A stretch of 64,000 bases of DNA from Thermoplasmata archaeon (GCA_034667685.1 JAXDQU010000034.1:31022-95021), one strand, 5' to 3'; shown: positions 4,919 to 63,144, counted from the first letter of the stretch. The notes: a model not told the origin generated them from the sequence alone. Numbers and translations are program-made.

Positions 4919-5006
4919 CCGCCAGCACGCCAGCACGCCAACGCGCATGGTCGTGTGGCGCTCGCGTTCCCGTCCATCGCGTGTTGGCGCGCTGGCGTGC
5001 TGGCGG
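4919..5006. repeat. Palindromic tandem-repeat element (8-mer CACGCCAG/CACGCCAA family)
   Basis: ccgccagcacgccagcacgccaac ... gttggcgcgctggcgtgctggcgg. Confidence 0.85.
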
Positions 5007-5052
5007 AAGCCGCGAAGCGGCGACGGCGCGCGCGCACGCTCGACGACGCGCA

Positions 5053-5751
5053 TCATGGCGCCTCCAGCCCGCGATATCGCGCGTCGAGCTTCGGCGCCTC
5101 GCTCGCGGGCAGGTCGGACACAATCCTCCCATTCAGGAGAAAGAGCACGCGGTCCGCGACGCGCGAGGCCTCCACGAGGTCGTGCGTCGAGAAGAGGATC
5201 GTGCGCGTCTCGCCGCGGTACGCCCGGAGCAGCCGGGCGAGGCGCTCGCGCGCGGCCGGATCGAGGCCGGTGCCGGGCTCGTCGAGGAGCAGCACGTCGG
5301 GCTCGTGGATCAGGCACGAGGCGACGGCCGCGCGCTGGCGCAGCCCGCCCGAGAGGTCCCCGGCGCGGACGTGGGCGCGGTCCGCGAGCGCGAACTCGCC
5401 GAGCAGCCGGTCGACGCGCTCGCGCAGCCGGCGCCCGCGCACGCCTTCGAGCCGGCCGAAGAACGCGAGGTTCTCGCGGGTGGTCAGCTCGGGGTAGAGG
5501 TTCTCGCCCTGGGGCACGAAGCCGATCTTGCGGCCCAGCCGCTTCGTGTCCTCGGGGAGCAGCACGCCCGCGACCTTCGCGTCGCCCGAGGTGGGCAGAA
5601 GGACGCCGGCCAGGATCTGGAGAAGGGTGCTCTTCCCGGCGCCGTTGGGCCCCAGGAGCGCGACGGTCTGTCCGGGCGGCGCCTCGAAGGAAGCGCCCAC
5701 GAGCGCGTGCGTTTGCCCGTAGTCTCGGGTGAGCCCCCGGGCCGTGATCAC
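5053..5751 (-). CDS. ABC transporter ATP-binding protein
   Basis: GPNGAGKST, LSGG, LLLDEP, STH. Confidence 0.95.
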   Translation of the reverse strand: MITARGLTRDYGQTHALVGASFEAPPGQTVALLGPNGAGKSTLLQILAGVLLPTSGDAKVAGVLLPEDTKRLGRKIGFVPQGENLYPELTTRENLAFFGRLEGVRGRRLRERVDRLLGEFALADRAHVRAGDLSGGLRQRAAVASCLIHEPDVLLLDEPGTGLDPAARERLARLLRAYRGETRTILFSTHDLVEASRVADRVLFLLNGRIVSDLPASEAPKLDARYRGLEAP

Positions 5752-5802
5752 GGCCGCGGGAGCAAGGCCCGGCCAGATAAGGCTAGACGATCGGTCGTGC
5801 GA

Positions 5803-6036
5803 CTACGCGAGGGGCACGCAGTACTGGCACGGGTACGGAATCTCGTACTGGCAGTCGTAGTAGTAGTCGCCGTAGGACCAGGAGGTGCCGATGCAGGCGA
5901 GGCCGGGGCAGTGGGGGCCGGGCTGGACGGTGCCCGAGAGGACCGTGCACGTGCCGAACGCGTCCGCGGAGGGCGCGGCGGTCACGAAGACGGTGGTCGC
6001 AAGGAGAAGCATGGCGGCAAGGATGACGATGCGCAT
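5803..6036 (-). CDS. Small secreted Cys-rich peptide (6 Cys)
   Basis: Signal peptide MRIVILAAMLLLATTVFVTAAPSADA; mature part has 6 Cys and ends CVPLA. Confidence 0.7.
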   Translation of the reverse strand: MRIVILAAMLLLATTVFVTAAPSADAFGTCTVLSGTVQPGPHCPGLACIGTSWSYGDYYYDCQYEIPYPCQYCVPLA

Positions 6037-6118
6037 GGGGTTGTGCCCGCCGCCCGCACGCCGTTGCCGTGACAAGAAGTGTCGGAGGGCGCAGCCGCGT
6101 GGATGCGTGACCCCGAGA

Positions 6119-6179
6119 GAAACCCGACGACCCGCGGATCCGAGAACCCGAGGGGCGAGACGTCGGGTCGTCGGGTTTC
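6119..6179. repeat. Palindromic tandem-repeat element (8-mer CCCGACGA-like)
   Basis: gaaacccgacgacccg ... cgggtcgtcgggtttc, a 16-bp inverted repeat. Confidence 0.8.
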
Positions 6180-6187
6180 GGCCCCGG

Positions 6188-7159
6188 TCACACCCGCGCC
6201 AGCAGCTCGGCCACGCCCTGCTTGACCGTCGCGCCTTCGTAGAGGATGCGGTGGACGACGCGCGTGAGGGGAAGGTCCAGGTCCTCGTCCACGGCGTAGT
6301 CGTTGAACGCCTTGGTGGCGAAGACGCCCTCGGCGACCTGGCCGTGCATCTTCTCCTTGATCTGCTCGGCGGGCGTGCCGCGGCCCAGCTCGCGCCCGTA
6401 GAAGCGGTTGCGCGAGTGCTCGCTGGTGACGGTGGCCACGAGGTCGCCCAGCCCCGCGAGGCCGTAGACGGTGCGCTCGTCGGCGCCGAAGAGCGTGGCC
6501 AATTCCACCATCTCGTCGATGCCCAGCGTGACGAGGCACGCGGAGCAGTTGTCGCCCCAGCCGAGGCCCTCGGCCATGCCGCCGGCGAGCGCGACGACGT
6601 TCTTGTACGACCCGCACACCTCGGCGCCCACGAGGTCGCGGCGCGGGTAGGCCTTGAAGAAGCGCGTCGCGAAGAGATCGGCCCACTCCTGCGCGATCGC
6701 CATGTCGGGGTAGGCGAGCACGGCCGCGGTGGGCTGGCCGACGCTGACCTCCTCCGCGTGGTTGGGTCCCGTGATGCACGCGACGGGCTTGCCCGTCTCC
6801 TCGTGGATGACCTCGCTCATGCGCTTGTGCGTGCGCTGCTCCAGCCCCTTCGTCGCGGAGACGACGAGCGCCTCCGGGGCGAGGTGCTTGGCGTACACGC
6901 GAGCGAATTCCCGGGTCGCCTTGCTGGGGACCGCGTGGACCACGTGCCGCTCGCCCGCGAGCGCCTCCGGGAGGTCGTGCGTGACCGCGAGGCTGGGCGG
7001 GAAGGGGACGTTGCTGACGTAGTGCGGGTTGCGGCGCTCCTTGCGCATCGCGGCCACGAGCTGCTCGTCGCGCGCCCAGAGCGTGACGCGCTCTCCCTTG
7101 CTGGCGAGCAGGATGGCGAGCGTGGTGCCCCATGAGCCGGCACCGAGCACGGCGGGCAC
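6188..7159 (-). CDS. gpsA: NAD(P)H-dependent glycerol-3-phosphate dehydrogenase
   Basis: GAGSWGT, ATKGLE, GPNHAEEV, KNVVALAGG, GLGDL, SRNR motifs. Confidence 0.93.
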   Translation of the reverse strand: MPAVLGAGSWGTTLAILLASKGERVTLWARDEQLVAAMRKERRNPHYVSNVPFPPSLAVTHDLPEALAGERHVVHAVPSKATREFARVYAKHLAPEALVVSATKGLEQRTHKRMSEVIHEETGKPVACITGPNHAEEVSVGQPTAAVLAYPDMAIAQEWADLFATRFFKAYPRRDLVGAEVCGSYKNVVALAGGMAEGLGWGDNCSACLVTLGIDEMVELATLFGADERTVYGLAGLGDLVATVTSEHSRNRFYGRELGRGTPAEQIKEKMHGQVAEGVFATKAFNDYAVDEDLDLPLTRVVHRILYEGATVKQGVAELLARV

Positions 7160-7832: not shown

Positions 7833-7880
7833 GACGCGGGGGCCAAGCCGGGCGGGGCAGGTAAGATTTTCGGCCAGCGC

Positions 7881-7955
7881 GGGGGGTTCGGGGGGCGCAG
7901 CCCCCCGACGTTTCGCACGCGCAAATCCTCAAGCCCAACCCGGGGCTGCGCCCCG
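7881..7955. repeat. G-rich REP-like hairpin motif plus a second mini-hairpin
   Basis: GGGGGGTTCGGGGGGC-GCA-GCCCCCCGA and cggggc-tgc-gccccg; resembles 22161-22190. Confidence 0.6.
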
Positions 7956-8385: not shown

Positions 8386-8495
8386 AAGGGAAGACGGGAA
8401 GCGAGGGAAGAAAGGAACAAGGGAACAAGGGAACAAGGGAACAAGGGCCCCCTTGTTCCCTTCTTCCCTCGCTTCCCGTCTTCCCGTCTTCCCTT
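8386..8495. repeat. Palindromic tandem-repeat element (GGGAAGAC/GGGAACAA family)
   Basis: Purine-rich arm of gggaagac/gggaacaa units followed by the complementary ttcccgtc arm. Confidence 0.9.
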
Positions 8496-8551
8496 CGGAT
8501 TTCGATATCACGGCCACATGCCCGATAGCGGATGCGACGCGACGGGCTGAC

Positions 8552-12319: not shown

Positions 12320-12382
12320 GGGCTCGGGGCTCTGGACTCAAGGCTCAGGGCTCCGGAGCCCGGAGTCCAGAGCCCCGAGCCC
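12320..12382. repeat. Palindromic tandem-repeat element (7-mer GGGCTCN)
   Basis: gggctcggggctctggactc ... gagtccagagccccgagccc, a 20-bp perfect inverted repeat. Confidence 0.88.
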
Positions 12383-12440
12383 CGCCGTTCGGAGGTCCGT
12401 CGCAGAACGCTCATGCGCAGGAACGGGGTCACGAAGCCCG

Positions 12441-16757: not shown

Positions 16758-18413
16758 ATGATCAGGGAGGTTGGCGAGATGTCGTCGGATTTTGGATCAG
16801 ATCGGCACGTGGGCGTCGTGGTCGTCGGGCTTGCTCTCCTGCTGCCCTCGCTTTTCGTGGCCGGCCCGGCCGCGGCGGACTCGGTGAGGGACCGCGGGGT
16901 GGTCTTCCCCGCGGGGTGCGGGCCCGGCTACGGGAGCGTCGTCTGGGACGGCCATGAGGCGTACGTGTTCTGCGGGACGAGCACCCAGATCGTGCGGTAC
17001 GATCCCGCGACGAACGCGGCCACGGTGATGGGCGCCCACATGCCCGCGGCGCGCGCCTACACGGCGGCCGTGTGGATCGGGGACAGCGCCTACATTTTCG
17101 GGGGGTTCGCGTCGGGCGTCACCACGGGCCAGGTGTTGCGCTATACGCCGGCGACGGACGCCGCGCCCGCGGTCGTGGGCGACCTGGCGTCGATGGGCTG
17201 GGGGACGCTCTATCGAGCCAGCGCGGTCACCGACGGGACCAACGCGTACCTTCTGGGCGGCGTGTACGACCAGGGATCGTGCTCGACCCGCGAGCTCGTC
17301 TTCTACCCCGCGACGAACCAGGCCTGGCAGGCCGGGACGCTCCCGTCGAGCTACTGCGGGACCAGCGCCGTGGCGGACGGCCACGGCTACGCCTTCCTCT
17401 TCGGAGGTGGCGACGGCAACGGGTTCACGAGCCAGATCGTCGAGGTCTGCCTTTGCGGGACGACGGGCCAGCCCAACGGCAACGTCGTGGGCGCGCTTCC
17501 CAGCCCCCGCGATGCCACGAGCGCCGCCTGGGACGGGACGTACGCCTACGTGTTCGGCGGCGACGTGCAGGTGGGCTCGGGATCCTCGTTCAACCCGAGC
17601 CGCGACGTGGTGCGCGTCAAGACGAACACCTTCGCGTCCATCTTGTCCGGCGACGTCGTGCGCATGAGCGCCCCGCTTCCGGCCGCCACCGACTACACGG
17701 TTGCCGTGTGGGACGGGAGCGGGGCGGACGTCTTCACCACGAGCGGGAGCGTGCTGCGCTACACGCTGGAGCCCGGCGCGCCGCAGGGCCTGGTGGCCTC
17801 GGCGGGCACGGGCTCGGTCTCGCTCCAGTGGCAGCCGCCCTCCGCCAGCTCGTACTCGTCGGCGCCCACGGGCTACCGCGTCTATCGCGGGACGCCGGGG
17901 GCGGAGGCGCTCGTCGCGGAGCTGGGCGTCGCGTCGAGCTACGTCGACTCGGGGCTCACCGACGGCCAGCGTTACTTCTATCGCGTCGCCGCCGTGAATC
18001 CCTCGGGCGAGAGCCCGTGGTCGGAGGAGGTCTCCGCCATCCCCCTGGGCGTTCCGGGCGCGCCGCGCGACCTGGCCGCGACGCCCCGAGCGCTGGCTTC
18101 CGCGCCGGGGCAGGCGCCCGCGATCCATCTCTCATGGGATCCGCCCGCGTCGGAGGGCGGCACGCCGGTGCTCGAATATCGCATCTACCGGACCGGGGGC
18201 GGCGTGGAGCGTCTCCTGGGCAGCGCGGGCGGGACCGCGACGAGCTTCGACGACGCATGGCTCCCCGACGCATCGTGGGCGCCCAACGGGGGCTACGCCT
18301 ACCGCGTCTCGGCGCGGAACGCCGTGGGCGAGGGCGATCCCTCCGCGACCGTCTCCTGCCGGCCGCAGGACGCGCTCTTCGCGCCGGTGGGCACCTGCGA
18401 CAGGCTGGTCTAG
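16758..18413 (+). CDS. Secreted Kelch-repeat protein with two fibronectin type III domains
   Basis: Signal peptide; repeated AYIFGG/AYVFGG; FN3 motifs LQWQPP..GYRVYRG..YRVAAVN..GES. Confidence 0.88.
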   Translation: MIREVGEMSSDFGSDRHVGVVVVGLALLLPSLFVAGPAAADSVRDRGVVFPAGCGPGYGSVVWDGHEAYVFCGTSTQIVRYDPATNAATVMGAHMPAARAYTAAVWIGDSAYIFGGFASGVTTGQVLRYTPATDAAPAVVGDLASMGWGTLYRASAVTDGTNAYLLGGVYDQGSCSTRELVFYPATNQAWQAGTLPSSYCGTSAVADGHGYAFLFGGGDGNGFTSQIVEVCLCGTTGQPNGNVVGALPSPRDATSAAWDGTYAYVFGGDVQVGSGSSFNPSRDVVRVKTNTFASILSGDVVRMSAPLPAATDYTVAVWDGSGADVFTTSGSVLRYTLEPGAPQGLVASAGTGSVSLQWQPPSASSYSSAPTGYRVYRGTPGAEALVAELGVASSYVDSGLTDGQRYFYRVAAVNPSGESPWSEEVSAIPLGVPGAPRDLAATPRALASAPGQAPAIHLSWDPPASEGGTPVLEYRIYRTGGGVERLLGSAGGTATSFDDAWLPDASWAPNGGYAYRVSARNAVGEGDPSATVSCRPQDALFAPVGTCDRLV

Positions 18414-18483
18414 GGCCTGTTTCATCGCCCCTCTCAACCGCCTGCGAGGTTTTCTTTCGATGTTCCGTGCGGCGCTTCGCTGA

Positions 18484-18547
18484 CCGCCAACACGCCATCA
18501 CGCCAAGACGCCAACACGCCGCGTGTTGGCGTCTTGGCGTGATGGCG
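18484..18547. repeat. Palindromic tandem-repeat element (8-mer CACGCCAA family)
   Basis: 27-bp perfect inverted repeat at 18493-18519/18521-18547; same unit family as 4919-5006. Confidence 0.92.
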
Positions 18548-22104: not shown

Positions 22105-22150
22105 GAATCCCGGATCACGGACGTCCGTGATTCGGAGATTCGGTGATTCG
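22105..22150. repeat. Short palindromic tandem-repeat element (GATTCGGN 8-mer)
   Basis: gaatcccggatcacggacgtccgtgattcggagattcggtgattcg. Confidence 0.65.
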
Positions 22151-27747: not shown

Positions 27748-27792
27748 GTGGAGCGTCCACGATCTTGGAGCCAGCCGGAGTCCCACTCGTCG

Positions 27793-27880
27793 TCGGTCCC
27801 GCTTCCGATTCCGATTCCGCTTCCGACTTCCGCGTCGGGCTCGGAATCGGAATCGGAAGCGGGACCGAACGGAAGCGGGA
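27793..27880. repeat. Palindromic tandem-repeat element (6-mer TTCCGA family)
   Basis: 27-bp perfect inverted repeat at 27793-27819/27842-27868. Confidence 0.92.
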
Positions 27881-27941
27881 CGATTTCGAAAAGCGAATCC
27901 AGAAATAGGCCCCCCACCTGGTTGTGGTCCGGGATGCACCA

Positions 27942-39684: not shown

Positions 39685-39737
39685 GCGCGTCCATTCGGCG
39701 CCTCTCCATAAAGGGTTCCTCCTGCCTGGCGCCACCG

Positions 39738-39817
39738 CCCGAGCCCGATTCCGATTCCTCTTCCGAGCCCGGCGGGCGCAAGCAGGGCTCGGAAGAGGAA
39801 TCGGAATCGGGCTCGGG
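39738..39817. repeat. Palindromic tandem-repeat element (6-mer TTCCGA family)
   Basis: 33-bp perfect inverted repeat at 39738-39770/39785-39817. Confidence 0.93.
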
Positions 39818-39850
39818 TTTGGCCGCGAGGCCTGCGCGCGATTCGGCGAG

Positions 39851-44071: not shown

Positions 44072-44158
44072 CCTCCAGCCACAGAGGGACACAGAGGCCA
44101 CAGAGGTCGCCCTTCTTTGCGTTCCTCTGTGGCCTCTGTGTCCCTCTGTGGCCGGAGG
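44072..44158. repeat. Palindromic tandem-repeat element (CACAGAGG family)
   Basis: gccacagagggacacagaggccacagagg ... cctctgtggcctctgtgtccctctgtggc. Confidence 0.93.
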
Positions 44159-48014: not shown

Positions 48015-48042
48015 GAGGGCAAGGGTAGGGGCAAGTTCTCCT

Positions 48043-48756: not shown

Positions 48757-48866
48757 AGGGGAAGCGAGGGAAGACGGGAAGAAGGGAAGATGGGAAGACG
48801 GGGCCCGCGTTCCCTTCTTCCCGTCTTCCCTCGCTTCCCGGCTTCCCGTCTTCCCGTCTTCCCTTC
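48755..48866. repeat. Palindromic tandem-repeat element (GGGAAGAC family)
   Basis: Same units as 8386-8495, sharing the tail cttcccgtcttcccgtcttcccttcgg. Confidence 0.92.
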
Positions 48867-49619: not shown

Positions 49620-49629
49620 AGAACGCACG

Positions 49630-49755
49630 TCGTTCACGTTCTCGTTCACGGCGTACGTTCCACGTTCACGTCGCACGTTTTTCGTTTGACGTGGAACGTG
49701 CAACGACGACGTGAACGTGGAACGATAGCCGAGAACGTGAACGAGAACGTGAGCG
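49630..49755. repeat. Nested palindromic tandem-repeat element (CGTTCA/CGTTCCA units)
   Basis: cgttcacgttctcg ... cgagaacgtgaacg enclosing cgttccacgttcacgtcg ... cgacgtgaacgtggaacg. Confidence 0.88.
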
Positions 49756-51897: not shown

Positions 51898-52305
51898 GGT
51901 CGCTCCGCTCGCGGCGCTCCTCGCGGTCGCGCTCGTCTACGTCCTCCTCCGCCCGATCCTCGCGGACCTCGTGCCGCACCTCGGCGTCGTCGAGTACCCG
52001 ATCGGCGCGGCGCTCGTGGCCGGCTGCGTGCTCCTGGCGCTCCGTCCGCGCCGCGCCCGGGCGCCTCCCGCCGCGCCGTGGCGCAAGCACGCGCAGGTCG
52101 TGCGCCCGCTCCCCGACCCCGAGGCGCAGGCGCGCGCCGCCGCGCTCGACGACTGGGCCAGGACCGGCGCGCAGCCCGACCGCGCGCAGCGCATCCTGGC
52201 CCAGGCGACCGGCGAGGACGTCGCGCCCGCCATGGGCGCGGCGACCACCGAGCGCAAGCGCCGCGCGCTGCTATCCTCCCTATCGAAGAAGATCTCCGGA
52301 ACGTG

Positions 52306-52306
<1 letters not shown>
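51884..52306 (+). CDS. Small membrane protein of the MoxR operon
   Basis: Two TMs; overlaps both neighbours. Confidence 0.65.
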
Positions 52307-53295
<989 letters not shown>

Positions 53296-53296
53296 G

Positions 53297-54595
53297 ATGG
53301 TCCTGACCCGGACGGGCCGCACGCTGATGGCCGCGGCGCTCGTGACGTGCGCCTCCGGCGTGCTCTTCGGCAACTGGCCGGTGCTGGGCGCGGGCGCGCT
53401 CCTCCTGCTCGTCGTCTCGATGGGCGGGCTCGCCCGGATGCCCCGCGCCGAGCGCCGCGTCGACGCGACCCACGTCGCCCGCGGCGCGCGTGTCGTCCTT
53501 GATATCACCGTCGAGGCCCCTCGGGGCCTCGGCGTCGTTGAAGTCCGTCAGCGCCTCCCCGACGAGTTCGAGCTCGTCGAGGGCAACAACCTGCACCTCG
53601 TCACGCTGAGCCCGTTCCGCGCGCGCCGCCACGAGTTCCGCCTGGTCGTGCGCATCCCCAAGCGCGGCGAGTGGACGCTCGCGCCGCTCGACCTGAAGCT
53701 CCAGCACCCGCTGGGCCTCGTCGAGTCCCCGGTGGGGCAGGCGGGCGAGGCCGCGACGATCCTCGCCGAGCCGCGCGCCCTCCCCGCGCGCATCCCGCGC
53801 GACCTGCGTACGCGCGCCAAGCGCCCCTTCCCCGACGGCGACCTCGCGCGCATGGGTGTCGCGACCAACGAGTTCCGCGAGCTGCGCGAGTACGTGCCCG
53901 GCGACCCGCCGCGGCGCATCAACTGGAAGGCCACCGCCCGCGCGCTCTCCTCGGGCGCCAGCGACGTGCCGCTCGTCAATGAGACCGAGTGGGAGGGCAA
54001 GAAGAGCGTCTACATCCTGGTCGACGGGCACGCGCGGCTCAGCGTGGGCACGAACCTGGAGGACGCGCGCGAGCACGCCGCCGACGCCGCGATCTCGCTC
54101 ATCGAGCTCTACCTGCGCCGCGGCTACCAGGTCAGCGTCGCGCTCGCGCACAGCGGCCAGGTCGAGACGCTCCGCCCCGGCGCCGGCGAGGCGCAGGTCC
54201 GGCGCGCCCGCGGGATGCTCGCGCGCCTGCGCCCCGAGCCGGGCCCCACGCTCGCCGAGGTGCTCCAGCGCGACGCCGCGATCCTGCACCGCCAGCGCCC
54301 GCTCATCGTGCTCGTCACGCGTCTGGCGGGCGACGACCCCGACCTCGAAGCCGCGCTGCGCCGCATCGGCGCCCACGGCCGCCAGCAGGGGCGCAACCTC
54401 GTGCCCGGCCTCGTGCTCGACCTCCAGCCCGAGAGCCGCGTCGAGGGCGACGGGGGCGCGCTCGCGGAAGCCTCGATCCGCGGCGACGACATCAAGATGC
54501 AGCGCGCGGCGCGCGTCGCCGGCCTCCGCGTCGTCCCCTGGCGCGCGGGCCGCGAGCCCCTGACCGCCGTCCTCGTGAGGGGGCGCGTCCAGTGA
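53297..54595 (+). CDS. DUF58-domain protein
   Basis: EFRELREYVPGDPPRRINWKATAR. Confidence 0.92.
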   Translation: MVLTRTGRTLMAAALVTCASGVLFGNWPVLGAGALLLLVVSMGGLARMPRAERRVDATHVARGARVVLDITVEAPRGLGVVEVRQRLPDEFELVEGNNLHLVTLSPFRARRHEFRLVVRIPKRGEWTLAPLDLKLQHPLGLVESPVGQAGEAATILAEPRALPARIPRDLRTRAKRPFPDGDLARMGVATNEFRELREYVPGDPPRRINWKATARALSSGASDVPLVNETEWEGKKSVYILVDGHARLSVGTNLEDAREHAADAAISLIELYLRRGYQVSVALAHSGQVETLRPGAGEAQVRRARGMLARLRPEPGPTLAEVLQRDAAILHRQRPLIVLVTRLAGDDPDLEAALRRIGAHGRQQGRNLVPGLVLDLQPESRVEGDGGALAEASIRGDDIKMQRAARVAGLRVVPWRAGREPLTAVLVRGRVQ

Positions 54596-55332
54596 GGCGC
54601 CCGCTCCCGTGGGGCGACTACGCCAGCCGCGCGCTCTCGTGCGCGCTGCTCTTCGTGACGGGCTTCGCGCTCCTCTCGGAGAGCACGTTCGCGCTGCGCA
54701 TGCGCAACGACATCCCGTTCAGCCTGGGCGGGCTCGACGGCCCGCAGAGCATCGCGCTGATCGTGGCGGGCGTCATCTCCGTGATCCCGCTCCTGGCCGG
54801 CCCCGCGTTCCTGGGCGTCTTCCTCGCCTGCGGCTGGCTGATCTCCGGCCTCGGCGCGTACTGGTGGACCACGATCCCCTGGGACGAGCTGCTCAACGAC
54901 GGCCAGTTCCCCGGCGGCATCCCCGCCGGCCTGCTCGACTACGCGCTCGTCGCGGGCCCCGCGATGATCGCCACGCTCCACGTCGTGCTATCACGCGTCA
55001 GCCGCCTGCGCAGCGACGCGAGGGCGCGCGGCATCGACCCGGACGAGTCGCGCCGGGCCGCGGCGGCCGCCTTCCTCGCGGGCGCGGGGACGCTCGTGGC
55101 CGCCTTCGCGCTCTCCGCCGTCTTCTGGTGGCTCATGGCCTCGGGCGCGCTCACGTCGCTGGGCGGGCTCCCGCGTGGCGTGCCGGCGCTCGTGCTGGGC
55201 GCCGCGGTCGTGTGCGCGGGCTGGGCTCTCGCGACGAAGCGCGTCCGGCTTGGCAGGGTGCGCGTGCCGAAGGTCGCTGCCGCCCCGGAGGACAAGCCCG
55301 CTCCGGCGAGCACCAAGAAGACGCTCGTCTGA
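54592..55332 (+). CDS. Multi-TM hypothetical protein
   Basis: GTGA overlap with the DUF58 gene; about 6 TMs. Confidence 0.7.
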   Translation: MRRPLPWGDYASRALSCALLFVTGFALLSESTFALRMRNDIPFSLGGLDGPQSIALIVAGVISVIPLLAGPAFLGVFLACGWLISGLGAYWWTTIPWDELLNDGQFPGGIPAGLLDYALVAGPAMIATLHVVLSRVSRLRSDARARGIDPDESRRAAAAAFLAGAGTLVAAFALSAVFWWLMASGALTSLGGLPRGVPALVLGAAVVCAGWALATKRVRLGRVRVPKVAAAPEDKPAPASTKKTLV

Positions 55333-55348
55333 TCACGCCCGGCCGACC

Positions 55349-55417
55349 CAACACGAAGACACGAAGGCACGAAGTTCCAGGATCTTCGTGCCTTCGTGGC
55401 TTCGTGCCTTCGTGTTG
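55349..55417. repeat. Palindromic tandem-repeat element (8-mer CACGAAGG family)
   Basis: caacacgaagacacgaaggcacgaag ... cttcgtgccttcgtggcttcgtgccttcgtgttg. Confidence 0.92.
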
Positions 55418-55432
55418 AGAGGGTGGAGAAGA

Positions 55433-56968
55433 TCAGACGCCCATCGCCAAACGCAAGAGGTCGCGCAGCCCGGGCCCCAGGCCCAGGGCGAAGATGGCGA
55501 GCTTCACGAGGCCCACGAGGTTGCGCTCGTCGTCCTTCGCGTCGTCCGAGGCGCCCGGAAGCTCGCGGTCGAGGAGCCACACGACGGCGACGATCATCAG
55601 CAGCTTCGCGAGCGGGTAGAGGAAGCCGCCCAGGTAACGCAGCAGGAAGTCGCTGAAGGGATGCTTCTCGCTGTAGGGCGGGATGCCGAAGCCGAGCGGA
55701 TCGCGCAGCGCGACCCACGTGCTGAAGCCGTCGATCATGTGCGCGAACACGAGCGAGGCGTTCAGGCCCGCGGCGAAGGTGAGCAGCGCGCGCGGGCGGA
55801 TGTCCACCTCGCGGCCCACGTGCAGCGCGGCGAAGACGAGGAGGAGCAGCGCGCCCAGCGCCGCGAGGAGCGGGATGAGGACGTCCTGGCGCGGGACGCC
55901 CTCGAAGAAGGGCGCCAGGTTCGGGAGGATGCCGGCCATGAGCGCGGCGAGGGCGAGCGCGATGCCGCCGGCCCAGCCCACGGCTTCCTCGGCCTTCTTC
56001 GGGACGCGCGTCGCGATGCCGGCCCAGCGCGCGAGCGCCGGCGTGTTGCCCAGCAGGCGGCCCAGCGCCATGACGAGGAGCGCCACCGTGCCCGCCGCGA
56101 GCAGCACGAACACCGCGGCGAGGAAGTAGAGCTGGCGGTTCCACACCTGCGGCGCCCACACGTCGCCCAGGAGCCAGCGCACGATCAGCCAGAGCGTGCC
56201 CGCGACGAAGGGGAGGCCCAGCGCGAAGACGACGAGGTTCATGGAGGCTGCGCCCTCGCGCGCGCGCCACGCCACGAGCGCCACCGCGCCCACGCACGCG
56301 ACCGCGATCCACCAGAAGGGGGGAAGCGCGCTGAACGTGCCGGGCACGCCGAACGAGGCGTACGCGAACGTGGCGAGCCCGACCGTCACGGGGACCGCGA
56401 CGGCGAGCGTCTTCTGCGCGGGGCTCCACGAGGTCCGCTCGACGAGGAGGCCGACCAGCATCGCGCCCAGGACGTAGAGCGCGATCATCACGTAGATGAC
56501 CGGGCTGATGAAGAGGAACGCGAACGGGCTCGGGTCGCATTGCGTGCCGACGTGGCAGAAGACGTCCGCGTCCTCCAGCACGCGCCCCGTGGGGCCCAGG
56601 AGGATCCACGGCAGGAGCGCCGCGACGAACGCGCCGTCCGCGCGGATGCGGAAGCGGCGGAAGAGCCCCATGTAGATGCCATAGAGGAGCGTCGCGAGGA
56701 CGACGCCGTAGGTCAGCTCGGCCGTGATCGTGTAGCCGTCCTTGGCCGGCACGCCCGCGGGGCCCAGGTCGGTGCAGCCCGCGTCCGCGCTCGTGCGGCA
56801 CTGGTGCGCGTCCACCACGAGCGGGCCGTAGAGGTCCTCCCACACGAAATGATCGTACACCTGCCGCGGCGCGACGGCGACGCCGACCGCGACGAGGCCC
56901 GCCGCGACCGCGAGGGCGCCCACCGCGAGCCAGAGTGCGTTGCGCTCGATCCACGCGCGGGCCGCCAT
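55433..56968 (-). CDS. DUF63-family archaeal membrane protein
   Basis: GYT...ELTYG, RVLEDA, FISPVIY, AHMIDGFST, EKH, LGLGPGLRDLLR. Confidence 0.88.
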   Translation of the reverse strand: MAARAWIERNALWLAVGALAVAAGLVAVGVAVAPRQVYDHFVWEDLYGPLVVDAHQCRTSADAGCTDLGPAGVPAKDGYTITAELTYGVVLATLLYGIYMGLFRRFRIRADGAFVAALLPWILLGPTGRVLEDADVFCHVGTQCDPSPFAFLFISPVIYVMIALYVLGAMLVGLLVERTSWSPAQKTLAVAVPVTVGLATFAYASFGVPGTFSALPPFWWIAVACVGAVALVAWRAREGAASMNLVVFALGLPFVAGTLWLIVRWLLGDVWAPQVWNRQLYFLAAVFVLLAAGTVALLVMALGRLLGNTPALARWAGIATRVPKKAEEAVGWAGGIALALAALMAGILPNLAPFFEGVPRQDVLIPLLAALGALLLLVFAALHVGREVDIRPRALLTFAAGLNASLVFAHMIDGFSTWVALRDPLGFGIPPYSEKHPFSDFLLRYLGGFLYPLAKLLMIVAVVWLLDRELPGASDDAKDDERNLVGLVKLAIFALGLGPGLRDLLRLAMGV

Positions 56969-57025
56969 CGGGAACGCGCGCGCATGCTGGCGGGTCCGCT
57001 TAAGGGTTGGTCGCCTTCGCGACGC

Positions 57026-57090
57026 TCCCTTCCCAACACCGAGAATCCCGGAATCCGCGGATGCCTCGGATGCGCGGTGTCGGGAAGGGA
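57026..57090. mobile_element. MITE/REP-like element, copy 3
   Basis: tcccttcccaacaccgagaatcccggaatccgcggatgcctcggatgcgcggtgtcgggaaggga. Confidence 0.8.
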
Positions 57091-57144
57091 CCGCCACCGC
57101 GAGCCCAACCCTGAAGTAGGTGCGCGCTGGATCAACGGCCGGCG

Positions 57145-58206
57145 ATGGAAGACTTCACCAAGTCGAAGACGATGGTCTTCCCGCGCGTCGTGCGCGTGGG
57201 GCACGGCGTCCTCGAGGAGGTCGGGGACGTGCTGCGCGAGCTCTCCGTGCGCGACGACGTGCTGGTCGTCTCGGGCGCGCGGACGCGCCGGCTCGCGGGC
57301 GAGCGCGCGCTGGGCGTCGTCCAGAAGGCGGGCTATCAGGCCGACCTCGTGGAGATCCACGGCGCGACGCTCGCCGACGTCGCGGTGGCCGAGGCCGCGG
57401 GCCGCAAGGCGAAGCCGCAGGTCGTCCTGGGCGTGGGCGGCGGGGGCGTCATCGACGTCGCCAAGCTCGCGGCGTTCCGGCTCGGCGTCCCCTACGTCAG
57501 CGTGCCCACGAGCGCCAGCCACGACGGCATCACGAGCCCGCGCGCGTCCATCAAGGAGGAGCGCGGCAACGCGAGCAAGCAGGCCTCGACGCCGATGGCG
57601 ATCGTCGCCGACACGGAGATCATCGCGCGCGCCCCGTACCGCATGCTCGCGGCCGGGTGCGCCGACGCCATCAGCAACAGCACCGCCGTGCTCGACTGGA
57701 AGCTCGCGCACCGCCTGCGCGGCGAGGAATACAGCAGCTTTGCCGCGGTGCTCGCGCAGACCGCGGCCGACATGGTCATCACGAACGCCGAGGTCATCCG
57801 CCCCGGCCTGGAGGAAAGCGCTTGGCTCGTCGTGAAGAGCCTCATCGTTTCGGGCGTCTCGATGAGCGTGGCGGGGAGCAGCCGCCCCGCCTCGGGCAGC
57901 GAGCACATGTTCAGCCACACGCTCGATCAACTCGCGCCCGGCCGCGCGTACCACGGCGAGCAGGTCGGCCTCGGCACGATCATGATGATGTACCTCCACG
58001 GGGGCGACTGGCGCAGCGTGAGGGATGCGCTGCACGCCGTCGGAGCCCCGACCACCGCCGAGAAGCTGGGCGTCTCGCGCGAGGTCGTCGTCGAGGCGCT
58101 GTGCAAGGCGCACCTGATCCGGCCCGACCGCTACACCATCCTGGGCGACAAGGGGCTCTCGCGCGAGGCCGCCGAAGAATTGGTCCGCGTTACGGGTGTG
58201 GCCTGA
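57145..58206 (+). CDS. egsA: sn-glycerol-1-phosphate dehydrogenase
   Basis: GVGGGGVIDVAK, PTSASHDGITS, SSRPASGSEHMFSH, HGEQVG, RPDRYTIL. Confidence 0.95.
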   Translation: MEDFTKSKTMVFPRVVRVGHGVLEEVGDVLRELSVRDDVLVVSGARTRRLAGERALGVVQKAGYQADLVEIHGATLADVAVAEAAGRKAKPQVVLGVGGGGVIDVAKLAAFRLGVPYVSVPTSASHDGITSPRASIKEERGNASKQASTPMAIVADTEIIARAPYRMLAAGCADAISNSTAVLDWKLAHRLRGEEYSSFAAVLAQTAADMVITNAEVIRPGLEESAWLVVKSLIVSGVSMSVAGSSRPASGSEHMFSHTLDQLAPGRAYHGEQVGLGTIMMMYLHGGDWRSVRDALHAVGAPTTAEKLGVSREVVVEALCKAHLIRPDRYTILGDKGLSREAAEELVRVTGVA

Positions 58207-58643
58207 TGCCGTTGACCATCGTGGGCGAGAAGCTCGCCACGCCCGGCCTCGTGTTCCGCTATCAGGGCGAGACGGACGAAGGGTGCGCGGCGTGCAAGCT
58301 GCGCAGCGTGTGCCACGGTGGCCTGAAGCCCAACCGGGAGTACCGCGTCAAGGCCGTCCGCCCCGTGCAGCACGACGTGTGCCACGTCTTCGAGGGCAAG
58401 GTGCAGGTCGTCGAGGTCGAGGAGAAGCCGCTTCCCCTGCGCGTCGCCATTCCGGTCGCGGCCACGCGCGGCACGGGCGTCACGAACCGCTTCGAGGAGT
58501 GCGGCGCCTCGTGCCTCTACAAGGGCCTCTGCAACCCGGTCGCGCTGCCGTCCGGCGTGACGGCGCAGATCGAGAAGGTCGAGGGCGACGTGCCCTGCCT
58601 CGTGGGGCGGAAGCTCCGCTTCGCGCTCGTGCGGCCGCCGTGA
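58206..58643 (+). CDS. UPF0179 family protein
   Basis: LTIVGEKLA, CAACKLRSVC, HDVCHVFEG; typical neighbour of egsA. Confidence 0.88.
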   Translation: MPLTIVGEKLATPGLVFRYQGETDEGCAACKLRSVCHGGLKPNREYRVKAVRPVQHDVCHVFEGKVQVVEVEEKPLPLRVAIPVAATRGTGVTNRFEECGASCLYKGLCNPVALPSGVTAQIEKVEGDVPCLVGRKLRFALVRPP

Positions 58644-58646
58644 TCG

Positions 58647-59456
58647 CTACTTCGTCGCGGAGATGATATCGAGGCGCAGCAGCGAGCGCACGGCCAGGAC
58701 GTTGAGCGCCACCACCCACACCAGGAGGTTGGGCGCGATCCAGCCCCAGTCGGAGGCGCCCACGTGGCCGCCCGGCCCGAGGGCCGAGAGCGCGGCGTTC
58801 GGCAGCGCGCGCGAGGCCCACACGCCGGCCTGGCCGAGCCCCGCCAGGAGGCTGCGCAGGACGTCGCCCGCGACGAGCGCGCCAAGCGTCGAGCCCAGGC
58901 CGACGCCGAGGCTGCGCGACCCGAGCGTCGTGCCCAGCGCGATGAGCGCCCAGCCCAGGAGCAGCGCCCACGCGCGGACGAGAAGGATCGCGACGTCGCG
59001 CGGCGTGGTCTTCAGGAGCGTCTCGCCGCTCACCATGCCGAAGACCGCCGCGCCGCCCACGCCCGCGGCCACGGCGAGGAGCGCGAGAAGGAGCGCGGCA
59101 ACGGCCAGGAGCGCCACCTTCGCCAGCGCGACGTCGATGCGCCGGGCGCGCGCGAGCAGCAGCGTGCGCAACGTGCCGCGCGTGAACTCCTGCGCGACGG
59201 ACTGCGCCGCGAAGACGACCAGGGTCAGCGTGCCGATGCTCACGGCGAGCGAGGCGACGAAGCCCACCGCGTCGGCGCGCAGCGGGGCGAGGAGCGCGGC
59301 GGGGTCGAGGCCGGCGCCCTGGGGCGCGGCGAGGATGCTCGCGAACGCGATCACGATGAGCACGACGTAGGCCGCGAGGATGCCCAGGAGGACGTACGTC
59401 GCGGGCTGGCGGAGCGCCTTCGTCGCCTCGACGGAGGCCATCGCGCGCAGGCTCAC
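58647..59456 (-). CDS. ABC-2 transporter permease
   Basis: EFTRGTLRTLL, LAKV, about 6 TMs, RLDI. Confidence 0.87.
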   Translation of the reverse strand: MSLRAMASVEATKALRQPATYVLLGILAAYVVLIVIAFASILAAPQGAGLDPAALLAPLRADAVGFVASLAVSIGTLTLVVFAAQSVAQEFTRGTLRTLLLARARRIDVALAKVALLAVAALLLALLAVAAGVGGAAVFGMVSGETLLKTTPRDVAILLVRAWALLLGWALIALGTTLGSRSLGVGLGSTLGALVAGDVLRSLLAGLGQAGVWASRALPNAALSALGPGGHVGASDWGWIAPNLLVWVVALNVLAVRSLLRLDIISATK

Positions 59457-60379: not shown

Positions 60380-61051
60380 TTGATCACCGTCCTCCTGGCC
60401 GACGCCGCGCTGGAGCTGATGCCCCCCGAGCTGCGGCGCCACCCCAAGGTCCTCGCCCGCGCCAAGCGCCGCCGGCGCGACCCGGAGCGCCTCCTGCTCG
60501 ACCAGGCACTGGACCACGAGGCCATGCGCGGCCTGCGGGACGCGGAGCGGCGCGGCCGCCCTGATATCACGCACGTGTGCCTCCTGCTCCTGCTCGACTC
60601 GCCGTTGAACGCCGCGGGCCGGCTGCGGGTGCTCGTCCACACCCAGGACGACGCGCTGATCCGGGTCGACCCCGCGACGCGCATCATGCGCAACGGCGCC
60701 AAGTTCGCGCAGCTCGTCGAGGACCTGCTGCGCCAGGGCGAGGTCCCCGCGGGCCGGCCGCTCCTGACCCTGGAGCGCGGCGTGCGGCTTCCCGACGCGC
60801 TGCCGCCCGGCCCGGTCGTCCTGCTCGACGAGGCCGGGACCCTGGCCCGCACGCCCGAGTTCGCGCGCCTCGCCCGCGCCCACCCGGACTTGACGCTCGT
60901 GCTGGGCGCGTTCCCGCGCGGCGCGATCCGCGAGCCCCCGCGGGCCGACCACGTGCTGCGCGTGGCCGACGCCCCGCTCTCCGCGTGGAGCGCGCTCGTG
61001 CCGGCGCTGGCGGGGTTCGAGGATGCGCTCCTTCTCTCCGGGGGAGGCTGA
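60380..61051 (+). CDS. Nep1/Emg1-like SPOUT methyltransferase, divergent copy
   Basis: LADAALELMP, LLLD...H, RRGRPDITH, LDSPLN, VHT, LGAFPRG. Confidence 0.85.
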   Translation: MITVLLADAALELMPPELRRHPKVLARAKRRRRDPERLLLDQALDHEAMRGLRDAERRGRPDITHVCLLLLLDSPLNAAGRLRVLVHTQDDALIRVDPATRIMRNGAKFAQLVEDLLRQGEVPAGRPLLTLERGVRLPDALPPGPVVLLDEAGTLARTPEFARLARAHPDLTLVLGAFPRGAIREPPRADHVLRVADAPLSAWSALVPALAGFEDALLLSGGG

Positions 61052-61187
61052 GGGAGGCGAGGGGAGCCGGGGGGAGACGGCGGGGAGGCGAAGGGAGGCG
61101 AGGGGAACGAGCCCTCAGCCTCCCCTCGCCTCCCTTCGGCTCCCCCAGCCTCCCTCCGCCTCCCTCCGCCTCCCCGCCGTCTCCCCG
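61041..61187. repeat. Palindromic tandem-repeat element (10-mer GGGAGGCGAG family)
   Basis: About 6 purine-rich 10-mers followed by about 7 complementary cctcccctcg-type 10-mers. Confidence 0.9.
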
Positions 61188-61229: not shown

Positions 61230-61436
61230 ATGCCCAAGCCGGAGCCCGAGCCGCAGCCGCGTCCCTCACGCACGCGCCGCGCGCTGATCTGGCTCCTCAA
61301 GGCGCCCTTCCGCCTGCTCTGGCTCCTGGTCAAGTGGCTCGGCAAGCTCCTGTGGTGGGCGTTCAGCGCGGGCTTCAAGGCGGGACGCTCCGCCCCGCGC
61401 GAGGCGCCCGAAGAGGACGCCCCGCGCAAGGGCTGA
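61230..61436 (+). CDS. Small amphipathic/membrane protein
   Basis: ALIWLLKAPFRLLWLLVKWLGKLLWWAF. Confidence 0.6.
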   Translation: MPKPEPEPQPRPSRTRRALIWLLKAPFRLLWLLVKWLGKLLWWAFSAGFKAGRSAPREAPEEDAPRKG

Positions 61437-61439
61437 CGC

Positions 61440-61650
61440 GAGCCCATCCGACGACTCGCGCGGGGCTGCGGCCAACGATGCAGGGCCGGCTGCTTCGTTG
61501 CGCTCGACGAGGCCGCGGCCTCGCCGGCGCCTCGCTACGCTCAGCGCGACCGCTCGAAAGCCCGCTACGGGGATTCCTTCGGGATCGCGCGCCTCGCATC
61601 CGGCCCTGCCTCGTCGGCCTCGCCTGCCGCGCGAGTCGTCGGATGGGCTC
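61440..61650. mobile_element. 211-bp non-coding element with 24-bp perfect terminal inverted repeats (MITE-like)
   Basis: gagcccatccgacgactcgcgcgg ... ccgcgcgagtcgtcggatgggctc; inner stem gcagggccgg/ccggccctgc. Confidence 0.8.
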
Positions 61651-62238
61651 TCAGATCGAGGTCACGACGAGGTCGTCGAAGAGGCACGTCGAGGCGGCGG
61701 AGGAGCCCTCGTCGTACATTTCGAGCCACACGGTCGCGGTCACGGCGCCCGCGGGCGCGGTCGCGGTGAAGGGGTAGGCCGCGAGCCAGTGGCCCTGCCA
61801 GAGGGCGGAACCCTGCATCGTCCAGCCCAGCCAGTTGCCCGACGCGTCCTGGAAGTCGATCACGACCTCGGGCTCGCAATCGATGGGGCCCGCGTCCCGC
61901 GTCATGACCGTGACGCGGTACGCCGTGCCCGCCGAGACGGAGAAGGCGTCGCTCTGCGCGCCGCACGAGCCGCGCTGGCCCGAGGCGTGCGTGACCGCGA
62001 GCGAGTGCGATCCCGAGTAGGCGGTGCTCGACTGGGCGACGGAGCAGTACGAGGAGCCGTCGAAGGAGCCCGTGAAGCCCGTGTCGGCGGCGGAGTTGCT
62101 CCAGTGGTCGGGGATGCCACCGGTCCCGTTCTCGAAGCCGCCGTTGGGCGCGACGTTGCCCAGGGCCTGGGCGAAGCCGGGCGCCACGGCAAGAGCGAGG
62201 AAACCGACGATCAGCGTGTTGCGGATCTTGCGCGTCAT
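61651..62238 (-). CDS. Secreted carbohydrate-binding-module-like protein (CBM4/9 fold)
   Basis: Signal peptide; NVAPNGGFENG..PDHW, AYSGSHSL, APAGA, FDDL. Confidence 0.8.
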   Translation of the reverse strand: MTRKIRNTLIVGFLALAVAPGFAQALGNVAPNGGFENGTGGIPDHWSNSAADTGFTGSFDGSSYCSVAQSSTAYSGSHSLAVTHASGQRGSCGAQSDAFSVSAGTAYRVTVMTRDAGPIDCEPEVVIDFQDASGNWLGWTMQGSALWQGHWLAAYPFTATAPAGAVTATVWLEMYDEGSSAASTCLFDDLVVTSI

Positions 62239-62331
62239 GCAGGGGGGCCCACACGCCCCGCGAGCATGGGATGATGGGTCATGGCGTTTCCACGCGGAAC
62301 GCTTTTCATGCGGCGCCGCGTGGCGGCGCTT

Positions 62332-63057
62332 GTGCTCACCCTCGTCCTCGCGGAAGCGGAGCTCGAGCTCGTGCCCGAGAACATCGTCCTCCACCCGCAG
62401 GTCCAGCGCGCGGCGCGGCACAAGGACCGGCGCCCCTCGCGCACGCTCCTGGACAGCAGCCTCCACCACGAGGCGCTCCGCCAGGTGCCCGAGGGCGAGC
62501 GGCGCGGCCGGCCCGACCTCGTCCACTTCGCGATGCTGCTGGGCCTCGACAGCGCGCTCAACCAGGCCGACGAATTGCGCATCGTCGTCCACACGCGCAA
62601 CGACGAGCGCCTCGCCATCCACCCCGACACGCGCCTGATGCGCAACTATCCGCGCTTCGTGGGCCTCATGGAGAAGCTCTTCCAGGAGGGCGCCTCGCCC
62701 AAGGAGAACCCGCTCCTCGTGCTGGAGCCGGGCTGGCCGCTGGCGCGCATCCTGGAGCACCACAAGAGCGGCCCCATCGTCGCCTTCCACGAGAAGGGCG
62801 CCCCCGTCGAGCCGGGCGCCTACCTCGCCGCCAAGCGCGAGGCCTCGCCCGATTTGACCGTGGTGCTGGGCGCCTTCCCGCACGGCGACTTCCACGCCCC
62901 CGCCGAGACGTGGGCCAACGAGGTCGTGGGCCTGGGCGGCAACGCGCTCTCCGTCTGGACCGTCGAGATGGAGATCCTGGCGCACTGGGAGCGCGCCTGC
63001 AAGGTGTTCCCGCGCGCGGTCGCGCCGAGTCCTCAGGCCGCACCCACGCCCGAATGA
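62332..63057 (+). CDS. nep1: 16S rRNA pseudouridine N1-methyltransferase Nep1
   Basis: LAEAELELVP, LLDSSLHH, RRGRPDLVH, VHTRND, RLMRNYPRFVGLMEKL, GAFPHGDF. Confidence 0.92.
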   Translation: MLTLVLAEAELELVPENIVLHPQVQRAARHKDRRPSRTLLDSSLHHEALRQVPEGERRGRPDLVHFAMLLGLDSALNQADELRIVVHTRNDERLAIHPDTRLMRNYPRFVGLMEKLFQEGASPKENPLLVLEPGWPLARILEHHKSGPIVAFHEKGAPVEPGAYLAAKREASPDLTVVLGAFPHGDFHAPAETWANEVVGLGGNALSVWTVEMEILAHWERACKVFPRAVAPSPQAAPTPE

Positions 63058-63072
63058 TGGCAGAAGGCGCGA

Positions 63073-63144
63073 CGTCTTCCCGTCTTCTTGTCTTCCTCGC
63101 CCTGCCGGAGGCGCTTCGCGCCGAACGAGGAAGACGGGAAGACG
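63073..63144. repeat. Palindromic tandem-repeat element (GGGAAGAC family, arms in reverse order)
   Basis: cgtcttcccgtcttc ... gaagacgggaagacg. Confidence 0.8.

Follow-up and report, generated by a model that had tools for sequence, protein, structure and literature searches.

Repetitive extragenic palindromic (REP) sequences and REPINs (bacterial interspersed mosaic elements, BIMEs) are short, GC-rich intergenic palindromes that occur in hundreds of copies and in several families per genome, expand in a lineage-specific manner and leave no target duplication. The system includes a RAYT gene, which encodes an IS200/IS605-like Y1 transposase (PF01797) and is usually flanked by REP sequences. 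Short tandemly repeated repetitive (STRR) arrays consist of tandem heptamers. Here, we analyze intergenic palindromes built from short tandem repeats in a stretch of 64,000 nt from a Thermoplasmata archaeon (G000:C34:31022-95021 of the genome assembly; G+C 71–74%). This whole stretch is called the window in the following, and positions given without a contig name refer to it. The palindromes are probably gene-less copies of small palindromic insertion elements with inverted arms of 6–10-nt tandem units, whose full form carries the gene of a four-helix-bundle or a GxxExxY protein in its loop.

The intervening sequence (IVS) in helix 45 of the 23S rRNA of Coxiella burnetii, as presented in the part of the source considered here, consists of an S23p open reading frame (ORF), a 28-bp stem and a variable number of GACAGAT heptamers adjoining the ORF; it is excised by RNase III, has a sporadic distribution and was read as a selfish, horizontally moved element (PMC4990558). 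From Geobacter metallireducens, the part of the respective paper considered here describes intergenic multicopy hairpins, in which about five tandem heptanucleotides loop back on the other strand and which were proposed to be binding sites for a regulatory protein (PMC2700814). In the literature we found only such partial precedents and no description of this class outside rRNA; the supplementary alignments of PMC2700814, with possibly comparable hairpins, lay outside the search.

Tandem-unit hairpins in the window and in the genome

The sequence-only reading of the window had claimed 14 intergenic palindromes consisting of an array, a spacer and the reverse array, with stems of 27–33 perfect bp and with different unit sequences. 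Repeat search, Tandem Repeats Finder and direct reading recovered an inverted repeat of tandem units at every one of these places, and all 14 have the same architecture, in which a degenerate tandem array is followed by a short loop and the reverse-complement array (Table 1). Upon RNA folding, 13 of the 14 elements were far more stable than shuffled sequences (z -4.0 to -13.7; 0 of 200 shuffles matched them). The predicted RNA stems of the elements ranged from -26 to -125 kcal/mol. Perfect stems measured 27 nt (18493-18547), 30 nt (48759-48839) and 33 nt (39738-39817), just as had been stated. According to gene calls from codon statistics, all elements are intergenic or extend no more than 11 nt into a gene end; eight are located in co-directional, two in divergent and three in convergent gaps, while the element at 61041 lies, also co-directionally, over a gene end. 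The units indeed differ, and the three recurring families that had been proposed reappear when judged by unit. However, the element at 63073 is not the same as those at 8386 and 48755, because its arms follow each other in the opposite order, which reverse complementing cannot interconvert. This mirror ("inside-out") arrangement of the same units (63073-63144) exists also at G000:C24:12530, and it might have originated at the junction of two adjacent elements.

We then considered the whole genome, which comprises 3.48 Mb in 124 contigs (99% complete, 1.3% contaminated). A scan for arms of at least 18 nt with at least 78% complementarity and loops of at most 60 nt yielded 552 inverted repeats, 167 of which have arms that are periodic at 5–12 nt. 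As many as 156 of these 167 are intergenic, with intergenic DNA making up 13% of the genome; five 447-kb simulations (second-order Markov, intergenic-like) produced 2–10 inverted repeats and no periodic one, versus the 156 real ones. Sorted by core motif, the tandem-unit hairpins number 308 in at least 12 unit families, amounting to 24.5 kb, that is 0.70% of the genome and 5.5% of the intergenic bases. The top number of copies belongs to GGRCTC (82), followed by CACRGAGG (43), GGGAAG (32), CACGAAG (30), CGCCAA (27), TTCCGA (23), GAATCTC (18), ACCCGA (14), CGTTCA (10), GCCTCA (4), GGGAGGCG (3) and CCAGGTG (3); a further 19 are other periodic hairpins. Contig ends are enriched in periodic sequence (16 of 248 versus 7 of 2000 random 40-mers, four of the 16 being poly-G runs that resemble sequencing artefacts), and therefore the true number of hairpins must be higher than 308. 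Contigs C12, C76, C99 and C121 end in long poly-G/poly-C runs, which look like sequencing artefacts.

Copies are found directly after stop codons and in gene junctions, and in some cases at the centre of another hairpin. The median distance of hairpins is 19.5 nt to gene 3′ ends and 59 nt to 5′ ends. Among the periodic hairpins, 68 are found in co-directional, 48 in divergent and 20 in convergent gaps, plus 20 at contig edges, and these counts track the total gap length of 225 kb, 118 kb and 65 kb for the three gap types, respectively. Terminators are expected at gene 3′ ends together with a T-run, as oligo-T in archaea or as a hairpin plus U-tract in bacteria. Runs of four or more T are not enriched beside the hairpins (44 of 591 flanks versus 115 of 2000 random intergenic 40-mers). 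Because the gap types follow gap length and T-runs lack enrichment, the hairpins are not terminators. This agrees with the earlier statement that they are "not simply terminators", 48 of 136 copies being situated in divergent gaps. An exception is the CGCCAA family: in 13 of 14 copies, its T-rich tail follows a gene of the same orientation.

Table 1. Tandem-unit hairpins of the window and one paralogue family of the genome. G000 is the genome studied here, G003 a genome of the same genus and L032 a metagenome contig; z values are from RNA folding.
Feature	Position	Strand	Remarks
CGCCA(A/G)CA octamer hairpin	4919..5006	.	28-nt arms, 32-nt loop; z -8.6; orthologous gap in G003 14 nt, empty
(A/G)ACCCGA octamer hairpin, outer GTGACC clamp	6107..6191	.	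z -4.0; same gap in G003 holds a CGAACCA-unit hairpin
GGGAAGNN octamer hairpin, purine arm first	8386..8496	.	z -7.7; unit family forms the arms of four-helix-bundle gene G000:C124:76061-76420
GG(G/A)CTCN heptamer hairpin, divergent gap	12320..12384	.	z -7.2; gap in G003 empty; family forms the arms of four-helix-bundle gene G000:C49:4194-4556
CGCCAA family, asymmetric left tail	18411..18484	+	starts at TAG stop of upstream gene; T-rich stretch inside
CGCCAA family, palindromic core	18485..18547	.	27 perfect bp, 1-nt centre; z -11.3
GAATC(T/A)C octamer family, weak degenerate member	22105..22150	.	13-bp stem, extra units on one side only; z -2.8, 1 of 200 shuffles as good
TTCCGA hexamer hairpin	27780..27881	.	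z -10.1
TTCCGA / CCCGAG hairpin, divergent gap	39724..39831	.	33 perfect bp; z -11.3
CAC(A/G)GAGG nonamer hairpin, CCTCCAGC clamp	44072..44158	.	z -13.7; Logan contigs of two runs end inside
GGGAAGNN family hairpin, 2 nt past TGA stop	48759..48866	.	z -5.7; gap in L032 14 nt, empty
CGTTC(A/T/C) hexamer hairpin	49631..49749	.	z -8.0; empty in L032 and L033
CACGAAGN octamer hairpin, convergent gap	55349..55417	.	z -7.8; empty in L032; family forms the arms of GxxExxY gene G000:C55:18853-19305
GGGGAGGCGA decamer hairpin	61041..61186	.	z -6.9
GGAAGACG-unit hairpin, mirror arrangement, pyrimidine arm first	63073..63144	.	z -4.4
Eight-member paralogue family	G000:C84:8984-12030, C25:13483-16013, C34:110935-112218, C40:408-1349, C9:28404-29357	no strand	paralogue search

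The window contains further hairpins beyond these 14, at 46209, 48043, 57023 and 7878. Three of them (46209-46283, 48043-48149 and 57023-57093) form a family with non-tandem arms, CGCTCCCTTCCCAACACCG(C/A)G(C/A)ATCC, and a 19-nt loop, which has at least a dozen more copies elsewhere in the genome; at two of the three window sites, the metagenome contig L032 lacks the hairpin. One hairpin of this CGCTCCCTTCCCAACACCG family, at G000:C115:4411-4640, is nested within GGGCAAG heptamer arrays, and in the window a GGGCAAG-type array (48012-48042) adjoins the copy at 48043 on one side only. The hairpin at 7878-7915 is a G-run hairpin of the GGGGGGTTCGGGGGGCGCAGCCCCCCGACG type, near-identical 33–38-nt copies of which exist at more than 30 places in the congener G003; with related copies in this genome as well, it represents a dispersed family common to the genus.

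Copying, turnover and cargo genes

Members of a family share loops, outer clamps and tails, which identifies the hairpins as dispersed copies and not as local inventions. GGRCTC hairpins at different loci repeat the same succession of unit variants, and their centre has either zero loop (~26 copies) or a conserved loop of ~20 nt (~20 copies). The copies of CACRGAGG have a common CCTCCAGC clamp and a conserved ~13-nt loop, the loop being present in both orientations; CACGAAG, CGCCAA and GAATCTC copies have family clamps in common, too. Altogether, the genome contains many sequence families of one design, each with dispersed copies and family-specific loops, clamps and tails.

The CGCCAA element extends beyond its palindrome. 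When 10 copies are aligned, similarity runs from TAG(A/G)ACCTGTTTCA through a T-rich stretch into the palindrome, and in 8 of the 10 its start coincides with the stop codon of unrelated upstream genes. By fuzzy searching, the tail was detected at 14 sites; in 13 cases it follows the 3′ end of a gene with the same orientation, and in nine of these 13 the distance of 39–44 nt to the gene end means that the TAG coincides with that end. On the other side, a semi-conserved right tail, GCGGCCCAAGCAGGGCAC ... GCGACAGAGGTC, occupies positions 18548-18630 of the window and is followed by ATG or GTG in three copies. Since this right tail precedes start codons, the element may span the whole gap from a stop codon to the next start. 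In the window copy a similar stretch, GCGACAGGCTGGTC, stands directly before its TAG.

Hairpins also occur within hairpins. Pairs of GCCTCA arrays 80–190 nt apart enclose a complete CACRGAGG hairpin at eight places by regular-expression search and at ~13 by reading, and other GCCTCA arrays enclose a CACGAAG hairpin (two places), the four-helix-bundle gene on contig C115, or little or nothing. GAATCTC arrays surround GTGACC-clamped ACCCGA hairpins at three places, and further palindromes lie within GGGAGGCG and GGGCAAG arrays. Whatever is enclosed, cargo or hairpin, is always positioned at the centre of symmetry, with nearly equal spacers in four of seven nested cases (10/11, 13/17, 21/16 and 9/2). 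The CCTCCAGCC clamp is the CCTCAGCC unit with one base changed, and this one-base difference suggests that arrays may grow by slippage at the base of the hairpin. In GGRCTC, the two arms have unequal unit numbers in about half of the copies.

Compensated changes in the stems exceeded those in shuffled alignments for CGCCAA (31 compensated cells versus 12.4 ± 2.8) and for CACGAAG (43 versus 24.7 ± 3.7), in both cases with 0 of 500 shuffles reaching the observed count. RNAalifold reported double changes in 9 of 34 pairs among 18 CGCCAA copies, that is, the 20 fetched copies minus two with long loops, with three further copies outside the sample. A strand-specific G-U signature was not found, as 52 mismatches would be G-U on the sense RNA versus 70 on the antisense RNA (p = 0.12). 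Because the mismatches show no strand bias, the stems are probably constrained at the DNA level, or the copies may simply be young.

In the lineage of this soil archaeon, the elements have expanded recently, and their sites change from one congener to the next. Three consecutive GGRCTC units matched 326 times here, never in four same-genus genomes (86–94% complete) and once in 26 other relatives; the corresponding numbers were 79, 0 and 0 for CACRGAGG and 76, 0 and 2 for CACGAAG, the last two both in one genome. A 400-kb sample of G003 contained 42 inverted repeats, 5 of them periodic, where ~63 and ~19 would be expected by scaling from this genome, and its hairpin families are partly different. 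The sequence-only reading had named empty alleles in orthologous gaps as a test of mobility, and all seven clearly alignable gaps in two relatives are empty: those at 4919 and 12320 in G003 (syntenic stretch, ~80% identical) and those at 48043, 48759, 49631, 55349 and 57023 in L032 (~80% identical). The gap at 8386 is filled in G003 by 1.8 kb of other DNA without a hairpin, and the gap near 11590, only 8 nt long here, holds a tandem-unit hairpin in G003. Shared loops, clamps and tails, lineage-specific bursts and empty orthologous sites together support a spread of the elements by copying. The earlier reading had inferred a shared mechanism that generates or mobilises them, with fold-back synthesis or a dedicated nuclease or transposase as candidates. 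Comparing the gap at 6107-6191 with its counterpart in G003 (L030, G003:C8, 13127-13195), we observed that the two species, which belong to one genus, have hairpins of different families following the same gene end. Different families in one orthologous gap point to repeated use of the junction or to very fast turnover of the arms.

The genome encodes four PF05635/TIGR02436 four-helix-bundle proteins, belonging to the "23S rRNA intervening-sequence protein" family, and three TIGR04256/PF13366 GxxExxY proteins of the PD-(D/E)XK fold. As the earlier reading had remarked, none of these seven genes lies in the window. It had also pointed to a link between similar repeats and these two gene types in some bacteria, and this link holds here: six of the seven genes are located between an array and its reverse complement, with arms of the hairpin families. 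The arms consist of GGGAAG (C124), GGRCTC (C49) and GCCTCA (C115) around four-helix-bundle genes, and of CACGAAG (C55), the GCGACG type with a GCTCCGCATGCG clamp (C21) and a short GGAAGGGGAAAGAG repeat (C11) around GxxExxY genes. Arms of the seven cassettes match 24, 51, 25, 6, 18, 2 and 20 other places. Because the cargo genes sit between inverted arrays of the same families, we regard the window elements as such cassettes in a gene-less form. Identity among the four four-helix-bundle paralogues is only 52–53%, and each has different arms.

The association is not restricted to this genome. When this genome was taken together with its relatives among archaea, 22 of 29 such genes had a flanking inverted repeat with a score of at least 16, and contig ends truncate two of the seven loci that failed. 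Among 54 bacterial four-helix-bundle relatives, 46 had enough flank, 27 of these passed the same score and 13 of the 27 have clearly periodic arms; in the control, the score was reached at 3 of 100 places chosen at random from this genome. CCCGTG-type hexamer arms were found in metagenome-assembled genomes (MAGs) of Myxococcota, Planctomycetota, Chlamydiae and Alphaproteobacteria. For the cargo proteins, the identity of the best matches is similar in archaeal relatives (43–52%) and in bacteria (46–52%).

A 15-nt motif, CGATTCCCGGAG(G/A)AG, occurs four times in the genome (G000:C21:31045, C55:19348, C124:76019 and C11:73361). Three copies lie 50–90 nt upstream of cargo genes of both types, and the fourth precedes a two-gene module encoding a protein of 79 aa without a family and one of 114 aa with a weak DUF7479 match and an AbrB-like end. 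The cassettes of relatives lack this 15-nt motif. The motif CGATTCCCGGAGRAG, which precedes three cargo genes, was rejected as a part of the element, since it is also found upstream of an unrelated small two-gene module and is absent from the cassettes of relatives. It is probably a local expression signal.

A RAYT/TnpA gene, one of the genes that the earlier reading had proposed to check for flanking repeat families, was not found: PF01797 (Y1 transposase) gave 0 matches in this 99%-complete assembly, and a control search was positive in 6 of 14 known genomes. Likewise, PF00078 (reverse transcriptase), PF01548 (IS110) and PF07282 (TnpB) had 0 matches each in the genome, in a type of assembly, the MAG, that often loses copies of insertion sequences, so that such absence is not proof. 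A DDE transposase was rejected as the mover, because the single PF01609 (DDE_Tnp_1) gene has ends unrelated to the hairpins. An all-against-all protein search returned no multi-copy enzyme candidate. The largest paralogue family, with eight members of 310–380 aa that are at least 70% identical and partly in tandem, is without a Pfam match, and the others are archaellins and pilins.

The sequence-only reading had taken the host for a bacterium. It is an archaeon, as judged from its TATA-binding protein (four repeats in two genes), an rRNA operon with archaeal small-subunit rRNA, tRNA, archaeal large-subunit rRNA (2703 bits) and 5S rRNA, the archaellin and archaeal pilin paralogues that it encodes, and the absence of sigma-70 region 2 from the genome in a profile search. 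The proteome is not acidic. An RNase III-like protein of 157 aa, comprising the catalytic domain only, is encoded at G000:C78:55520-55993 (L037 1438-1911); it scored 45.5 bits for PF14622 and 60.8 bits for TIGR02191, versus an NCBIfam cut-off of 166, and is without a double-stranded-RNA-binding domain.

Contigs of four public soil/rhizosphere runs (X1–X4) were compared over positions 39000-58999 of the window. Run X2, from another sample and study, contains the identical strain, in which the elements occupy the same sites and the flanks have 0 differing letters, and X3 a strain that is ~97% identical, with one element present. In all four runs, the summed contig depth rises to several hundred to several thousand at 41668-43001 and 52340-53006, probably because highly conserved gene parts recruit contigs of other organisms. 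A scan of metagenome contigs found only relatives of at most 85% protein identity, none of the same species, and no public RNA run was listed as containing positions 43900-50100.

Explanations for the elements

The reading as gene-less relatives of the cassettes, which we consider the probable one, involves a mechanism of several steps. Copies would arise by duplicative insertion of a DNA segment able to fold into a hairpin, arms would gain and lose units by replication slippage, and arm complementarity would be kept at the DNA level, as a hairpin or cruciform. Movement may depend on a trans-acting factor that recognizes shape more than sequence, because unrelated families expanded together; putative movers are the GxxExxY nuclease or replication and repair enzymes of the host.

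Several observations weigh against this reading. No recognizable transposase is tied to the elements. By eye, no target-site duplication was seen next to identical copies. Among the joints listed for the contigs of X1–X4 there was no clean empty-site or excision joint, the contigs breaking inside elements. Since the relatives are only ~80% identical, gain here and loss there are inseparable and boundaries are not exact; moreover, the relatives are MAGs of 72–100% completeness, in which repeats may be under-assembled. About 300 gene-less copies face only seven gene-bearing ones, none of the gene-bearing copies in this genome belongs to the CACRGAGG family, and the four-helix-bundle gene on C40 has merely an adjacent complete hairpin and no flanking arms. 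Covariation in CACRGAGG is at shuffle level (62 versus 58, reached by 149 of 500 shuffles), and related copies inflate the covariation counts above the number of independent events. Finally, the intergenic placement relies on a simple in-house codon-statistics caller, which predicted 3569 genes covering 87% of the genome.

The numerical excess of gene-less over gene-bearing copies, ~40 to 1, would follow if the hairpins spread independently and if small genes and smaller hairpins homed into their single-stranded apex, in which case gene-less copies would be empty targets instead of decayed cassettes. The consistently central position of cargo and inner hairpins with the near equality of spacers in four of seven nested cases, the four different contents within one outer family (GCCTCA), and the diverged four-helix-bundle paralogues in different arms are in line with this scenario. 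However, deletion of the cargo from a cassette yields the same final sequence, the same CCCGTG-type arms around related genes in distant phyla fit gene and arms travelling together, and we know of no homing cut site or nuclease activity. We treat it as a possibility, albeit a rather unlikely one. Selection of the hairpins at the RNA level, as processing sites, stabilizers of the upstream mRNA or operon insulators kept gap by gap, appears improbable to us. The stability of the predicted RNA stems, their closeness to gene 3′ ends, the stop codon and T-rich stretch that the CGCCAA element supplies behind genes, and the cleavage of classical 23S intervening sequences with the same gene family by RNase III, as given in the part of PMC4990558 considered here, are points in its favour. 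Against it stand the mismatches without strand bias, the many copies in divergent gaps, sites that are not conserved between congeners, the lack of any Rfam family at gathering score in the window (where no tRNA was found either), and the small RNase III-like protein of the host with its low score and missing RNA-binding domain. It is possible that a passive RNA effect goes along with mobility.

The periodic design with a constant core and 1–3 variable positions would also suit iterated sites for a chromatin or regulatory protein. At least 12 unrelated units with periods from 6 to 10 nt in one architecture within one genome, a placement independent of the function of neighbouring genes and of gap type, and the fast turnover of sites make such protein-binding arrays very improbable. 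Fold-back chimeras from assembly or sequencing are hardly credible: periodic sequence, partly poly-G, at 16 of 248 contig ends and Logan contigs that break inside hairpins might hint at them, but contig breaks are expected from dispersed repeats, ~300 copies fall into coherent families with conserved loops, and the same elements were found at the same sites in X2, from another study, and one in the ~97% identical strain of X3. At the speculative end, and unlikely in our judgement, the elements could belong to a structure-guided mobile system common to archaea and bacteria that works without a transposase. Its palindromes would be extruded as hairpins or cruciforms, and the apex would be the entry point at which other hairpins or a small gene are copied in, giving nested palindromes; the GxxExxY protein, as a structure-specific nuclease, would start the event with the four-helix-bundle protein as a nucleic-acid-binding helper, and the arms would serve as repair homology and be a by-product of slippage at the stalled hairpin. 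Families of the CGCCAA type would bring along a stop codon and a T-rich stretch, making insertion at gene ends harmless.

Comparison with described elements

With 308 short intergenic palindromes in at least 12 families, the elements resemble REP/REPIN sequences. In contrast to these, there is no RAYT/Y1 gene, the arms are internally tandem, and the elements are single hairpins of 60–150 nt with family-specific loops and tails; the associated genes encode four-helix-bundle and PD-(D/E)XK proteins instead of HUH enzymes, and the elements reside in an archaeon. Like the elements described here, miniature inverted-repeat transposable elements (MITEs), some of which are archaeal, are small, non-coding and bounded by inverted repeats, have larger gene-bearing relatives with the same ends and vary in presence between relatives. 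Different from MITEs, the gene-bearing form encodes a PF05635 or PF13366 protein and no known transposase, no target-site duplication was seen by eye, almost the entire element consists of the inverted repeats, which are composed of tandem units, and the only DDE transposase has unrelated ends. The hairpins of G. metallireducens and the STRR arrays were described, in the parts of the sources considered here, either as sites for a regulator or simply as tandem repeats, and these descriptions make no connection to cargo genes, nesting or mobility.

Provided that our favoured reading of gene-less and gene-bearing forms is true, one archaeal genome of 3.5 Mb harbours ~300 gene-less and seven gene-bearing hairpins that represent at least 12 families, include nested cases and have expanded in very recent bursts. 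Such a genome would be well suited to the study of how these palindromes move and of what makes their arms tandem arrays. The hairpins break short-read assemblies and fill 5.5% of the intergenic DNA, and therefore affect the contiguity of MAGs and the annotation of operons.

The gene-bearing cassettes are most directly comparable to the 23S intervening sequences of C. burnetii, Leptospira and others, in which, as far as the source parts considered here describe them, complementary termini form a long stem whose loop contains a PF05635 gene. The layout of a stem around an S23p ORF is found in the cassettes on C124, C49 and C115, and the window copies represent the stem without the ORF. The 23S rRNA gene itself is free of such an insert, which in the classical case is located in helix 25 or 45 (2930 nt, matching a 2987-position archaeal model end to end). 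Unlike the rRNA intervening sequences, the elements described here lie between protein genes, are mostly gene-less, number ~300 in at least 12 families, are nested and have GxxExxY as a second cargo, and the only RNase III-like gene of the host is truncated. If true, this reading would unite rRNA intervening sequences, unexplained bacterial tandem-repeat hairpins and two widespread small-protein families of unknown function in one class that crosses the boundary between archaea and bacteria.

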